From the IMG/VR virus record IMGVR_UViG_2534682338_000001, positions 1-6,966 of that record: a stretch of DNA of 6,966 bases; one strand, written 5' to 3'. Shown here piece after piece: positions 1,707 to 6,966 of this stretch (within the stretch, counting starts at the first letter, position 1; each line of letters starts with the position of its first letter). Source of the DNA: a virus (taxonomy: Duplodnaviria; Heunggongvirae; Uroviricota; Caudoviricetes). The notes below the pieces were generated by a model. It had not been told where the DNA came from and did no database searches. It was given only the letters and a program-made list of their open reading frames with translations. Position numbers and translations under genes: made by a program.

Positions 1707-3893
1707 ATGAGCACAAAATTTAAAACCGTTATCACCACTGCCGGTGCAGCAAAGCTGGCAGCGGCAACCGCACCGGGAGGGCGGAAGGTCAACATTACCA
1801 CGATGGCCGTCGGGGATGGCGGTGGTAAATTGCCTGTCCCGGATGCCGGGCAGACCGGGCTTATCCACGAAGTCTGGCGACATGCGCTGAACAAAATCAG
1901 TCAGGACAAACGAAACAGTAATTATATTATCGCAGAGCTGGTTATTCCGCCGGAGGTGGGCGGTTTCTGGATGCGTGAGCTTGGCCTGTACGATGATGCG
2001 GGAACGCTAATTGCCGTGGCAAACATGGCCGAAAGTTATAAACCAGCTCTTGCCGAAGGCTCAGGGCGTTCGCAGACCTGTCGCATGGTCATCATCGTCA
2101 GCAGTGTGGCCTCAGTGGAGCTGACCATTGACACCACAACGGTGATGGCGACGCAGGATTACGTTGATGACAAAATTGCAGAGCACGAACAGTCACGACG
2201 TCACCCGGACGCTTCGCTGACCGCAAAAGGTTTTACTCAGTTAAGCAGTGCGACCAACAGCACGTCTGAAACACTGGCCGCAACGCCGAAAGCGGTAAAG
2301 GCCGCGTATGACCTTGCTAACGGGAAATATACCGCACAGGACGCCACCACAGCGCGAAAAGGCCTTGTTCAGCTGAGTAGCGCCATCAACAGCGATTCTG
2401 AAACGCTTGCGGCAACGCCAAAGGCGGTTAAGACAGCGTATGACCTTGCTAACAGGAAATACACTGCACAGGATGCCACCACAGCGCGAAAAGGTCTTGT
2501 CCAGCTAAGTAGCGCCACCAACAGTGATTCTGAAACGCTGGCCGCAACATCAAAAGCGGTGAAGTCTGCCTATGACAATGCTGAAAAACGTCTTCAGAAA
2601 GATCAGAATGGTGCGGATATTCCGGGAAAGGATACCTTCACGAAAAATATCGGTGCCTGTCGTGCTTATAGCGGCGCTTTGAGCACTGAAGCCGGAAACT
2701 GGACAACCGCTCAGTTTATTGAATGGCTGGATTCCCGTGGTGCATTTAATCATCCGTACTGGATGTGCAAAGGCTCCTGGTCATATGCAAATAACAAAAT
2801 CATTACGGATACCGGATGTGGTGATATCCACCTGGCTGGTTGTGTCGTCGAGGTCATGGGAACTAAATCTGCAATCACTATCCGAGTGACCACACCGACA
2901 ACATCAAGCGGTGGCGGTACAACCAGCGCACAATTCACTTACATTAATCATGGGGACGGCTACTCCCCCGGCTGGCGTCGTGACTGGAATCGTCAGGGCG
3001 ACGCAATGACCGGAACGATTAATCAGGACGGTGGAAGCCAGAATGCCTATATGTCTACGGCCTTATGTTCAGGCACAAGAGGCGGCAAAAAATATCTCAG
3101 AAAGTTTCGTGGTGGAGAAGGAGACACTATCTGGCATGAAACAGTACAGGGCGGGGTAGTTCGTTGGGCGACTGGTAATACTGATGCTCAGGAAGAATTA
3201 TCACTCAGCTCCGCTTATGGTCTCCGTTCAAGAGGTGAGATTACATCACTCAGTGCTAATGGTCTGCGCATTGCTTATGGCAATTATGGTTTCTTTATCA
3301 GGAATGATGGCAGCAGCACTTATTTTATGTTGACTAAATCAGGTGACAGATTAGGAACTTATAATAATTTAAGACCGCTGATTATAAATGATGCCACTGG
3401 TGCTGTATCAATGGGGCATGGCCTGAATGTTACTGGTGATATTGTCTCAAGTACCAAAGTACGTGCCGGTAGCGGGAAAAAATTCACGGTCAGCAGCAGT
3501 AATACATCCACGAAGGAAGCCGCATTCAATTTGTGGGGAAACTCAAGTCGTCCGGTGGTGGCTGAATTAGGTGATGATGCAGGCTGGCATTTTTACAGTC
3601 AGAGAAATACAGATAACAGCATCACTTTTGCTGTTAACGGGCAGGTATCACCATCTAACTATGGCAACTTTGATTCACGCTATGTCCGGGATATCCGGCT
3701 TGGTGGTGCTGCCACATACAAACCTGCGAACAATGGCATGACATGGACACATCAGGCACCGTCCGGGTGTGTATATTCCGGCATTATTGTTCAGGATACC
3801 GGCTCAAACTCTGCCGATAACATTGGTGGCATATATTACAGACCGGTGCAGAAATACATTAACGGGACATGGTATAACGTAGCGCAGGTATAA
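1707..3893 (+). CDS. H: Tail fibre protein H (P2 gpH family): conserved high-GC N-terminal baseplate-attachment part, internal tandem repeats, divergent low-GC C-terminal receptor-binding part
   Basis: 728-aa ORF with N-terminus MSTKFKTVITTAGAAKLAAATAPGGRKVNITTMAVGDGGGKLPVPDAG.. typical of P2-like gpH; SD GAGG upstream; the SETLAATPKAVKxAYD motif recurs as in many tail fibres; sample-line GC drops from about 68% (line 1741) to about 40% (lines 3301, 3361). Confidence 0.9.
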   Translation: MSTKFKTVITTAGAAKLAAATAPGGRKVNITTMAVGDGGGKLPVPDAGQTGLIHEVWRHALNKISQDKRNSNYIIAELVIPPEVGGFWMRELGLYDDAGTLIAVANMAESYKPALAEGSGRSQTCRMVIIVSSVASVELTIDTTTVMATQDYVDDKIAEHEQSRRHPDASLTAKGFTQLSSATNSTSETLAATPKAVKAAYDLANGKYTAQDATTARKGLVQLSSAINSDSETLAATPKAVKTAYDLANRKYTAQDATTARKGLVQLSSATNSDSETLAATSKAVKSAYDNAEKRLQKDQNGADIPGKDTFTKNIGACRAYSGALSTEAGNWTTAQFIEWLDSRGAFNHPYWMCKGSWSYANNKIITDTGCGDIHLAGCVVEVMGTKSAITIRVTTPTTSSGGGTTSAQFTYINHGDGYSPGWRRDWNRQGDAMTGTINQDGGSQNAYMSTALCSGTRGGKKYLRKFRGGEGDTIWHETVQGGVVRWATGNTDAQEELSLSSAYGLRSRGEITSLSANGLRIAYGNYGFFIRNDGSSTYFMLTKSGDRLGTYNNLRPLIINDATGAVSMGHGLNVTGDIVSSTKVRAGSGKKFTVSSSNTSTKEAAFNLWGNSSRPVVAELGDDAGWHFYSQRNTDNSITFAVNGQVSPSNYGNFDSRYVRDIRLGGAATYKPANNGMTWTHQAPSGCVYSGIIVQDTGSNSADNIGGIYYRPVQKYINGTWYNVAQV
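2220..2580 (+). repeat. About 2.6 copies of a diverged 132-bp (44-codon) in-frame tandem repeat inside H
   Basis: Unit starts (CAG Gln codons) at 2238, 2370 and 2502, exactly 132 nt apart. Encoded units: QLSSATNSTSETLAATPKAVKAAYDLANGKYTAQDATTARKGLV / QLSSAINSDSETLAATPKAVKTAYDLANRKYTAQDATTARKGLV / QLSSATNSDSETLAATSKAVKSAYDNAEKR.. (third partial). Nucleotide identity between units is roughly 80-85% by eye. Confidence 0.8.
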
Positions 3894-4424: not shown

Positions 4425-4485
4425 GTTGTATGAACTCTGGTGTGAGCTTACACATCTATGGCACAGAGTAAAGCCTAATCTGACA

Positions 4486-4513
4486 GTCCGCTCTGTGCCA
4501 GAAGCGGACTTTA
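4486..4513 (+). terminator. Candidate weak intrinsic terminator downstream of G
   Basis: 6-bp stem GTCCGC (4486-4491) / GCGGAC (4504-4509) with a 12-nt loop, followed by TTT. It overlaps a second inverted repeat, GGCACAGAG (4460-4468) / CTCTGTGCC (4491-4499). The T-tract is short, so terminator function is uncertain. Confidence 0.3.
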
Positions 4514-4551
4514 GCAGAGTAGAGATTATCAATAGTGCAAAAAATAACTGG

Positions 4552-4590
4552 TTGAAACATTTGTACGTAAATGTTAGTTGTATTTAGATA
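4552..4590 (+). promoter_or_regulatory. Candidate sigma70-type promoter for the cargo gene
   Basis: TTGAAA at 4552-4557 is a good -35 hexamer, followed by AT-rich sequence with only poor -10 candidates (for example TAGATA at about 4585-4590). Position is about 40-80 nt upstream of the cargo start. Not verified. Confidence 0.25.
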
Positions 4591-4618
4591 AGGTCGTAGG
4601 ATATTTTATTCACATAAA

Positions 4619-5101
4619 ATGGAGTTTAATATGGAAGACTCTTGTAAGAAAAAAATAATGGTTGTTGTTGGAGCTGGCGCTTCGGTTGAATTAGGTATGC
4701 CAAGTGTCAGTGAGATAGATAAGCTGTTTTCGTTATGGGCGAAAGATGGTTACACTTTAGCTAGTGATAAAGATAAAAGTTTGTATTGCTACATTAAGGA
4801 GGAGGTTAATCGTCATTATGGATTGAATCCAAAAAAAGAATTAAGAAAAGAAACTAATTTTGAAGAGTTATTATATGTAATCCTTAATTTATCAGCAGCC
4901 TTGGGGGATAATAACTACAATTTTCCAATGAATGCATTCTGGGGAATAAGGGAACTTCCAAAAATAATTGGAGTTAATGGTGAGAAGTCGGTTGATGGAA
5001 ATGATTTAAGGCACCTTTACTCAAGGTTGAATGATAAACTAATTGGGGAATTTAGAGAGCGTTGTAAAATCGTTAAGGAGGAAAAAAAGAGGAGTTTTTA
5101 G
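4619..5101 (+). CDS. SIR2-like NAD-binding protein, N-terminal fragment (Rossmann GAGAS..GMP motif) of a frame-disrupted single gene; likely true start is the ATG at 4631
   Basis: Translation ..KKKIMVVVGAGASVELGMPSVSEIDKLF.. carries the hydrophobic-GAGxS-x3-GxP signature of the sirtuin/DHS-like NAD-binding fold. GGAG at 4621-4624 sits 6 nt before the ATG at 4631, while the ATG at 4619 has no SD. GC is about 28-38% on sample lines. The ORF ends at TAG 5099-5101 immediately after an A7 tract (5082-5088), while the SIR2 domain continues in frame +1. Confidence 0.7.
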   Translation: MEFNMEDSCKKKIMVVVGAGASVELGMPSVSEIDKLFSLWAKDGYTLASDKDKSLYCYIKEEVNRHYGLNPKKELRKETNFEELLYVILNLSAALGDNNYNFPMNAFWGIRELPKIIGVNGEKSVDGNDLRHLYSRLNDKLIGEFRERCKIVKEEKKRSF

Positions 5102-5886
5102 TTTTTGAAAAATTTATTAACCAACTTAATAATGACTATGACGTTGCTTTTATTACATTAAATTATGACAATCTTATAACTCAAGCTTGTCCAACTCTTT
5201 TTACTGGCTTTAGCAAAAGTACTGGCTTATTTGAAGAGGCAAGTGTTTATGCACAGTCTAAGTGGGGTTTAATTTATCATCTGCATGGTTCAGTTCACTT
5301 TGATATGCAAGGAACCCACTCAGATATGCATGCTGTCAAATGGAATAATGACTTACACTCTGAATTCAATCAGAATGCTTTTGGTAGAAACTCACAAAAT
5401 ACCTCTGAAGGTATAAGCATACCAACCTCGGCAATTGTCGCTGGTTACGCCAAAACCAGTCAGATTCAGCGGGTACCATTCCGTACTTATTACTCGAAGA
5501 TAGATGAGATTGCTTATAAAGCAGATGCTTATTTGTTTTTAGGGTATGGGTTCAATGATCCTCATCTAAATAACTCCCTGCATTCAATAAGAGATGGTAA
5601 ACATAATAAACCAGTCGTTATTATAGACTGGGCATCAGACACCCAAGACCCGATGCGGTTTAGACACGATGAGTGGTCTATAAATCTATGTAAGACTGTT
5701 CGTTCTAATGCTAATGAAATGGCAACGAGAAATTATAAGCACTCGGCTCCAGAAATAAGTAAATTAAAATCCACAGGAGCATTTGAAGTATCTTGCAATC
5801 CAGATTACCCATTATCAATTTGGTATGGTGGTTTTATACAAGCCTGCTCAAATTTTGATAAAATAAAATATGAATTAGGCATGTAA
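5077..5886 (+). CDS. SIR2-like protein, C-terminal part (catalytic Asn and His motifs plus GYGFND motif), reading frame open from 5077; same gene as 4619-5101, separated by a frameshift
   Basis: The frame of ORF 5305-5886 is open back to 5077 (stop TAA at 5074-5076) and reads GGKKEEFLVFEKFINQLNNDYDVAFITLNYDNLITQACPTLFTGFSKSTGLFEEASVYAQSKWGLIYHLHGSVHFDMQGTH.. The Asn codon in TLNYD is at 5161-5163 and the His codon in HLHG at 5284-5286, 41 residues apart, matching the roughly 38-40 residue Asn-to-His spacing I recall for defence SIR2 domains (ThsA, DSR2). ..AYLFLGYGFNDPHL.. at about 5540-5565 resembles the distal SIR2-like motif. There is no ATG between 5077 and 5305, so this segment cannot be translated alone. 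Confidence 0.7.
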   Translation, partial: GGKKEEFLVFEKFINQLNNDYDVAFITLNYDNLITQACPTLFTGFSKSTGLFEEASVYAQSKWGLIYHLHGSVHFDMQGTHSDMHAVKWNNDLHSEFNQNAFGRNSQNTSEGISIPTSAIVAGYAKTSQIQRVPFRTYYSKIDEIAYKADAYLFLGYGFNDPHLNNSLHSIRDGKHNKPVVIIDWASDTQDPMRFRHDEWSINLCKTVRSNANEMATRNYKHSAPEISKLKSTGAFEVSCNPDYPLSIWYGGFIQACSNFDKIKYELGM

Positions 5887-5940
5887 GCAATAAATTAGTT
5901 TATGTTAGTTAAGAGTAGCCTGGGGATGTCTGGCCTAGTC

Positions 5941-5968
5941 AAAAGCGGATTTTGTCATGTCCGCTTTT
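5941..5968. terminator. Perfect 9-bp inverted repeat hairpin (AAAAGCGGA / TCCGCTTTT, 10-nt loop); possible weak bidirectional terminator after the cargo gene
   Basis: AAAAGCGGA at 5941-5949 pairs perfectly with TCCGCTTTT at 5960-5968. The A/T-run symmetry would give a U-tract on either strand; the GC core is only 4 bp, so strength is doubtful. Confidence 0.35.
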
Positions 5969-6051
5969 CGCTCAAAGCAGACTGTCAGAATTGATAGCGT
6001 TTGGGCTATGTAAATTGTCAGTCGGAAAATGAGTGAGTACAAATCAGGACA

Positions 6052-6078
6052 GGCGGGCGAATTGCCCGCCTTTTCTTT
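6052..6078 (+). terminator. Rho-independent terminator separating the cargo unit from the sheath promoter
   Basis: GGCGGGC (6052-6058), loop GAATT, GCCCGCC (6064-6070), followed by TTTTCTTT (6071-6078): a GC-rich 7-bp stem plus T-tract. Confidence 0.7.
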
Positions 6079-6094
6079 ATCTGTTGTTTCATCC

Positions 6095-6165
6095 ACTGAC
6101 CAGCCAGGTCAAATAGCGTCTCAGGCACGGCCCAATAGAAAATAGTTGCACCCATTAACCACGGA
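6095..6165 (+). promoter_or_regulatory. Candidate P2-type activator-dependent late promoter (PF-like) plus SD for FI
   Basis: Dyad TGACC-AGCCA-GGTCA at 6097-6111, resembling the partial-dyad element (TGT-N12-ACA class) that lies about 55 nt upstream of P2 late promoter starts; AT-rich possible -10 around 6136-6146 (AATAGAAAATA); GGAG at 6162-6165 sits 9 nt before the ATG at 6175. Assignment is from recalled P2 promoter architecture. Confidence 0.4.
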
Positions 6166-6174
6166 GTTAAACGG

Positions 6175-6852
6175 ATGAGTGACTATCATCACGGCGTGCA
6201 GGTGCTGGAGATTAACGACGGCACCCGCGTCATGTCCACCGTATCCACCGCCATTGTCGGCATGGTCTGCACGGCCAGCGATGCGGATGCGGAAACCTTC
6301 CCCCTCAATAAACCGGTGCTGATTACCAATGTGCAGAGCGCAATTGCAAATGCCGGTAAAAAAGGCACGCTGGCGGCATCGTTGCAGGCCATCGCCGACC
6401 AGTCAAAACCGGTCACCGTTGTCGTGCGTGTGGAAGACGGCACCGGCGACGACGAGGAAACGAAACTCGCGCAGACCGTTTCCAATATCATCGGCACCAC
6501 TGACGAAAACGGTCAGTACACCGGACTGAAAGCCCTGCTGGCGGCGGAGTCGGTAACCGGTGTTAAACCGCGTATTCTTGGTGTGCCGGGGCTGGATACC
6601 AAAGAGGTGGCTGTTGCACTGGCATCAGTCTGTCAGAAGCTGCGCGCTTTCGGGTATATCAGCGCATGGGGCTGTAAAACCATTTCCGAGGTGAAAGCCT
6701 ACCGCCAGAATTTCAGCCAGCGTGAGCTGATGGTCATCTGGCCGGATTTCCTCGCATGGGATACAGTCAACAGTACCACCGCCACCGCGTATGCCACCGC
6801 CCGTGCGCTGGGTCTGCGTGCCAAAAATCGACCAGGAGCAGGGCTGGCATAA
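6175..6852 (+). CDS. FI: Tail sheath protein FI (P2 gpFI family), 5' portion; the frame is broken from about 6824 and sheath-like coding continues in shifted frames to the window end
   Basis: N-terminus MSDYHHGVQVLEINDGTRVMSTVSTAIVGMVCTASDADAETFPLNKPVLITNVQ.. is recognisable as P2-type sheath. The ORF stops at TAA 6850-6852 after 225 aa, whereas this family is about 390-400 aa. The last 66 nt (6901-6966) are back in the original frame and read ASVFWDLQESGTDADLLNESGV. Confidence 0.85.
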   Translation: MSDYHHGVQVLEINDGTRVMSTVSTAIVGMVCTASDADAETFPLNKPVLITNVQSAIANAGKKGTLAASLQAIADQSKPVTVVVRVEDGTGDDEETKLAQTVSNIIGTTDENGQYTGLKALLAAESVTGVKPRILGVPGLDTKEVAVALASVCQKLRAFGYISAWGCKTISEVKAYRQNFSQRELMVIWPDFLAWDTVNSTTATAYATARALGLRAKNRPGAGLA

Positions 6853-6966
6853 AAACGCTGTCCAAACGTCGGGGTAAAACGGTGTTAACCGGCATCAAGC
6901 GCGTCCGTATTCTGGGATTTGCAGGAGTCCGGTACCGATGCTGACCTGCTTAACGAGTCTGGCGTC

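Follow-up and report, generated by a model that had tools for sequence, protein, structure and literature searches.

Six extra adenines in the FI tail sheath gene of a P2-like prophage of Escherichia coli H120 are most probably homopolymer over-calls

Among the errors of 454 data insertions rank first; they become more frequent along the read and are associated with homopolymers, and mismatches are rare (PMC3116506). For Escherichia coli H120, Rousset et al. (bioRxiv 10.1101/2020.05.25.114553) described many sequencing errors in the assembly GCF_000190855.1 that create frameshifts and stop codons. The same authors resequenced the strain by Illumina and, after read mapping with breseq, made a corrected genome available as GCA_902876715. 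The tail cluster of phage P2, to which the locus studied here is related, has one known recoding event, namely the programmed -1 frameshift of E/E' (tail assembly chaperone) directly 3' of FI and FII.

Here we analyse a stretch of 6,966 nt, referred to as the window, which corresponds to a complete contig in the draft GCA_000190855.1 of E. coli H120 (positions 3271-10236 of scaffold GL871841.1). Based on the sequence alone, an earlier note had pointed to a cluster of single-A insertions that disrupts the tail sheath gene FI near the end of this contig. We conclude, with a probability of about 0.9, that the six extra A's are consensus homopolymer over-calls in the draft and no property of the phage gene. 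This reading is based on the position of the cluster at a contig end beside an N gap, its absence from independent copies of the prophage, a difference profile that consists of indels only and the published record of an error-rich assembly. Handles such as L009 designate the loci used for comparison, with L005 being the H120 scaffold itself.

A P2-type sheath gene interrupted by six adenines

By its domains, sequence identity and synteny FI is an ordinary P2-type sheath gene, the 5' two-thirds of which lie in the window (Table 1). The product as written has 225 amino acids, is annotated as EGB44454.1 (Escherichia coli H120) and matches the Pfam families Gp18_domIII_N and Phage_sheath_1. In an intact homologue of 396 amino acids these two families and Phage_sheath_1C all score above the Pfam cut-offs; the Phage_sheath_1C region of the H120 gene falls past the contig end. 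At the DNA level, a query of 867 nt shows 97.8% identity to P2. The gene order J-I-H-G, cargo, FI-FII-E-T-U-D, which is visible in L005, L008 and L009, agrees with that of P2, and J, I, H and G are intact inside the window.

Translation of frame 1 from the ATG at 6175 gives ...ALGLRAK followed by NRPGAGLA and a stop, and the sheath peptide returns further downstream. Both in-frame TAA codons listed in Table 1 are present in this translation, as the earlier note had stated. A three-way alignment of window positions 6700-6966 with P2 (OU784750) and E. coli 602687 contains exactly six gaps, each corresponding to one additional A in the window, and zero substitutions relative to P2. When the six A's are taken out of 6175-6966 the sequence matches FI of L009 at every base and the sheath frame is intact.

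Table 1. Coordinates of the features discussed, in window numbering
Feature	Position	Strand	Remark
A7 run (A8 in all relatives and in patched H120)	5082..5088	+	Homopolymer under-call
FI, 5' two-thirds, P2-type tail sheath gene	6175..6966	+	Truncated at the contig end, 6966
Extra A no. 1	6823..6827	+	A5 versus A4 in relatives
Extra A no. 2	6851..6855	+	A5 versus A4 in relatives; source of the in-frame TAA at 6850-6852
Extra A no. 3	6864..6866	+	A3 versus A2 in relatives
Extra A no. 4	6876..6879	+	A4 versus A3 in relatives
Extra A no. 5	6887..6888	+	A2 versus A1 in relatives; source of the TAA at 6886-6888
Extra A no. 6	6897..6898	+	A2 versus A1 in relatives; frame 1 is back downstream
Last 68 nt of the contig	6899..6966	+	Error-free; followed by 752 N in the scaffold

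These alignments fully bear out what had been read from the sequence, apart from a slip of one base in one coordinate. The earlier note had followed the sheath peptide by changing frames along the path AK / IDQEQGWHK / TLS / NVGV / NGV / TGI / SASVFWDLQESGTDADLLNESGV, and intact relatives have precisely this peptide as their FI sequence; the FI peptide proposed in the note was correct. The alignment to P2 FI that the note had proposed gives a continuous sheath sequence once the six single-A gaps are removed, and the net shift of +6 restores the frame as predicted, with L009 FI as the exact outcome. No substitution occurs in the stretch relative to either P2 or L009, again in line with the note. 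All six runs said to carry an additional A were recovered by alignment, one of them with a corrected coordinate, as the fourth run spans 6876-6879 and not 6877-6880.

We then asked how widely the interrupted allele occurs. A megablast search with positions 6100-6966 as query (867 nt) gave alignments of 861 nt to each of the phage and E. coli records listed. None of the 1,701 FI-carrying complete E. coli genomes and none of the 121 matching phage records found by megablast has the six-A allele, and exact-pattern scans for it gave no match in the GTDB species representatives or in IMG/VR. By exact-sequence look-up the 225-aa product is recorded from two H120 assemblies only, GL871841.1 and CADILR010000002.1 (GCA_902876715.1). 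Within the cluster the additional A's are unevenly distributed over the available sites. The corrected interval 6823-6898 contains 12 A-runs, and exactly one A was added in all four runs of at least two (lengths 4, 4, 2 and 3) versus two of the eight single A's, a preference with a hypergeometric p of 0.03.

Contig setting and other copies of the prophage

In the scaffold the window contig is flanked by runs of N, 145 to its left and 752 to its right, and the six-A cluster is located 69-144 nt from the right end, beside the 752-N gap. The N runs of GL871841.1 lie at 3126-3270 (145), 10237-10988 (752) and 13279-13744 (466). Their lengths do not reflect the true gaps, which by comparison with L009 measure 14, 1682 and 293 nt; the missing 1682 nt comprise the remainder of FI, FII, E/E' and the beginning of T. 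The first base of the scaffold, too, already falls inside the prophage. The mismatch in gap size together with this scaffold start suggests repeat-induced breaks in the assembly graph, perhaps caused by a second P2-like element in H120.

An exact look-up of the 728-aa tail fibre protein H retrieved many independent assemblies that carry the same prophage at the same site next to yegQ. In all of them FI is intact with 396 amino acids and the SIR2-domain gene is intact with 418 amino acids. Comparison of the four H120 contig pieces with L009 (GCA_051217855.1) and L012 (GCA_013051965.1) covers 15,042 nt and reveals no substitution, only eight indels of one base each. The same eight indels are found relative to L011 (Logan SRR31115533), plus 7 substitutions which are all outside the window. 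The eight comprise the six A's, A7 instead of A8 at 5082-5088 and an extra T at position 13215 of L005, so that seven of them lengthen or shorten an A-run or a single A. Seven of the eight also lie within 150 nt of contig ends that flank a gap, a zone that accounts for 6% of the compared sequence, and the eighth is the A8 to A7 miscount. Over the 15,042 nt aligned between the H120 scaffold and L009, the probability of finding at least six of eight indels inside one 75-nt span is bounded at about 5e-10. Differences that consist of indels only and sit at contig ends and homopolymers are the signature of flow-based sequencing error and not of evolution. The true FI gene of H120 is most likely the intact 396-aa gene seen in L009, L011 and L012.

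The extra T is outside the window, where the scaffold reads ATGTCGCC compared to ATGCGCC. It shifts the frame of gene U 33 nt past its start and is a second indel near a contig end of this scaffold, as the next contig ends 64 nt away.

The nearest complete genomes (CP195389 and CP159455; L003 and L004) differ from the window by 2-3 substitutions and A7/A8 up to position 6248, while the final 718 nt (6249-6966) contain 22 substitution sites relative to the same two loci. The last 267 nt (6700-6966) equal P2 except for the six A's. This pattern marks a recombination mosaic boundary just inside FI. As the boundary is common to L009, L011 and L012, it is real and no chimera of the assembly. In the same prophage lineage IS21-family (ISEc12-like) insertions are present at 11575-12961 of L003, in the T region of CP195389, and at 2307-4609 of L009, in the lysis region.

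The corrected H120 genome provides a further comparison. Its contig CADILR010000002.1 (L006) differs from the window in one position only, A7 to A8 in the SIR2 gene, and keeps all six A's despite this repair 1.7 kb upstream. The repair confirms that the window holds at least one homopolymer sequencing error. Since L006 shares its first and last bases with the window contig and is contig number 2 in both assemblies, it represents a patch of the old contigs and no independent assembly.

The SIR2 gene and the cargo slot between G and FI

The SIR2-domain gene (4631-5886, 418 aa) is split by the A7 run into two open reading frames at 4619-5101 and 5305-5886. It matches SIR2_2 in Pfam and SIR2 / Aga_SIR2-like in PADLOC, and is intact in L006 and in L008-L014. 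A8 is back in the patched H120 assembly, which shows the split to be a sequencing error. A7/A8 is thus an error independent of the six A's, of the same class and in the same contig.

The slot between G and FI (window 4425-6174) is a site of cargo exchange among similar P2-like prophages, occupied here by SIR2 and in P2 by two minus-strand genes. In other strains, among the database hits and in L001 and L002, it holds an S1 peptidase, DarT/macro-domain genes (DarTG-like), HsdR-N with DUF2971, or DUF3800. The slot resembles a defence-gene hotspot and would be separate from the gpA-gpQ one reported in PMC9122126. Just 3' of the SIR2 gene and 5' of the FI promoter region, positions 6052-6078 contain a G+C-rich hairpin, read by eye (GGCGGGC gaatt GCCCGCC), which is followed by the T-run TTTTCTTT. 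It looks like an intrinsic terminator, and this putative element might insulate the cargo gene from the late tail operon. A further gene, outside the window on the minus strand of L005 (1069-2313) between the tail genes S and V, encodes a 414-aa 'ATP-binding protein' without a Pfam match. It is also present in L003, L004 and L008-L012 and may be another cargo or defence gene.

Origin of the six adenines and comparison with known systems

Over-calls of this kind would arise where the contig runs out beside the unassembled gap, with a consensus presumably based on thin coverage by one or very few low-quality read tails. The most likely mechanism would be a flow-based signal error of the pyrosequencing type. 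We take the platform to be 454, as presumably used for the Broad Institute E. coli drafts of 2010-2011. If the A-flow signal were inflated by about 25-37% across a stretch of flows, A-runs of 2-4 would be rounded up by one. Single A's would reach 1.25-1.4, just under the calling threshold, and noise would convert a minority of them to two. One multiplicative factor of 1.25-1.375 indeed reproduces all four runs (4 to 5, 3 to 4 and 2 to 3) by rounding. To account for the clean last 68 nt, a simple decay of quality at the read end needs a second read across these 68 nt.

A variant of this explanation, possible but clearly the less likely form, places the fault with the assembler. Reads of a second P2-like element, or an error-laden read tip, would have been merged or left dangling at a repeat boundary, with the consensus corrupt near the branch point and the correct sequence in another contig. 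This would also explain why the Illumina correction is missing. The assembly interrupts the prophage three times, and the scaffold begins inside it; moreover, the true gap of 14 nt resembles a mini-contig dropped between branch points rather than a shortage of reads, and the missing 1682 nt correspond to the FI-FII-E-T region. Many draft genomes have contig breaks inside FI (partial products of 130-254 aa), and the complete E. coli genomes contain about 17% more FI places than genomes, which indicates that genomes with two P2-like prophages are common. Weak support (p ~0.05) comes from the first base of the next contig, which is a site differing from L007 and P2. However, a second P2-like prophage is not directly seen in H120, and the literature assigns the RT-SLATT system of this strain to a P4-like satellite rather than to a second P2-like phage. 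Mixing of two alleles should furthermore yield substitutions and not same-base insertions.

The alternative that the six insertions are real in H120, left open in the earlier note as an unusual mutational process, appears improbable to us. It supposes one localised event in which six A-containing sites inside a 75-nt stretch of FI each received a further A, and candidate routes would be a slippage-prone repair-synthesis tract or a recombined patch of error-prone cDNA. The 0 substitutions relative to L009 and L012 imply that such an event, if real, was very recent and took place in a single step. What speaks for it is that the Illumina-corrected assembly keeps the six A's, yet fixes the other homopolymer error in the same contig, and this retention is the sole evidence favouring real insertions. 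Reference-guided correction should have removed the six A's had the reads mapped normally to a single-copy locus. A failure of the correction could be explained by reads that went to another, error-free copy or to an overlapping contig, or by a loss of reads close to the contig end. Retention in L006 thus lifts the odds of real insertions somewhat, but the contig-end position offsets this rise, since it gives a plausible reason for the failure of polishing and is also expected under the artefact model. The position of the cluster, 69-144 nt away from a gap-flanking contig end, would be a coincidence of about 4% for real insertions, and for an artefact it is expected. The insertions are in addition of the same error type as the demonstrated A7/A8 error and the additional T near another contig end, the corrected assembly only patches the same contigs, and the allele is missing from every other data set searched. 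We know of no bacterial mutational process by which +1 insertions of one and the same base would come about at six sites over 75 nt, some of them non-repeated A's. Should this improbable case nevertheless hold, a slippage-prone tract of local synthesis would have produced a one-step 'insertion shower' of same-base additions, a mutational signature not described before in bacteria. The P2-like prophage would then be defective, as it could not build a contractile sheath and could not serve the P4-like satellite of H120 as a helper.

Ordinary pseudogene decay or programmed recoding of the sheath gene by ribosomal frameshifting has next to no probability, even though frameshifts and stop codons break the gene as written. 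Under decay, a mixture of substitutions and indels would be expected all over the element, and we rejected it on the basis of 0 substitutions in 15 kb and the intact tail genes J, I, H and G. This agrees with the view of the earlier note that six same-base indels are unlike ordinary pseudogene decay. Recoding predicts conservation, but none of the six shifts occurs in any FI homologue of the 1,701 E. coli genomes and 121 phage records, and programmed frameshifting was therefore rejected as well. To our knowledge, six successive +1 shifts past two TAA codons are without precedent. Adenine mutagenesis of the type exerted by diversity-generating retroelements (DGR) produces A-to-N substitutions and not insertions; it was rejected as insertions are observed, and we know of no DGR element near the FI locus.

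Homopolymer over-calling in the draft thus remains the preferred reading, and the suggestion of the earlier note that the cluster is a localised sequencing or assembly artefact is supported by its contig-end position, the insertion-free independent assemblies and the published errors of this assembly. The sheath gene of the H120 P2-like prophage is most likely intact, and EGB44454.1 is most likely the annotation of a sequencing error. The SIR2 defence-gene candidate of the same contig was also falsely frameshifted in the original record. Clusters of same-base indels near contig ends in drafts of the 454 era call for caution, as they lead to false pseudogenes and false calls of a 'defective prophage', and they can outlast reference-guided polishing, as exemplified by GCA_902876715.

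Compared to known systems, the locus differs from the E/E' shift of P2, which uses a single conserved slippery site and lies outside the window in the unassembled gap, unlike the six unconserved +1 shifts in FI. It shares a truncated sheath annotation (225 aa, EGB44454.1) with genuinely defective P2-like prophages. These, however, carry substitutions, deletions and IS insertions, while H120 differs by 1-nt indels of the error type only; the IS21-family insertions in L003 and L009 represent real prophage decay and are in this respect unlike the H120 indels. The closest likeness is to flow-based miscalls (454, Ion Torrent), which share indels only, extension of same-base runs, preference for longer runs, location at contig or read ends and spurious frameshifts and stops. 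Relative to typical miscalls the H120 cluster is extreme, since one base is over-called six times in 75 nt, twice at a single A. The errors documented by Rousset et al. in GCF_000190855.1 belong to the same assembly, in which A7/A8 was corrected and the six-A cluster, in the same contig, was not. The six-A anomaly is thus no new biological feature and fits flow-based homopolymer miscalls in an assembly published as error-rich.
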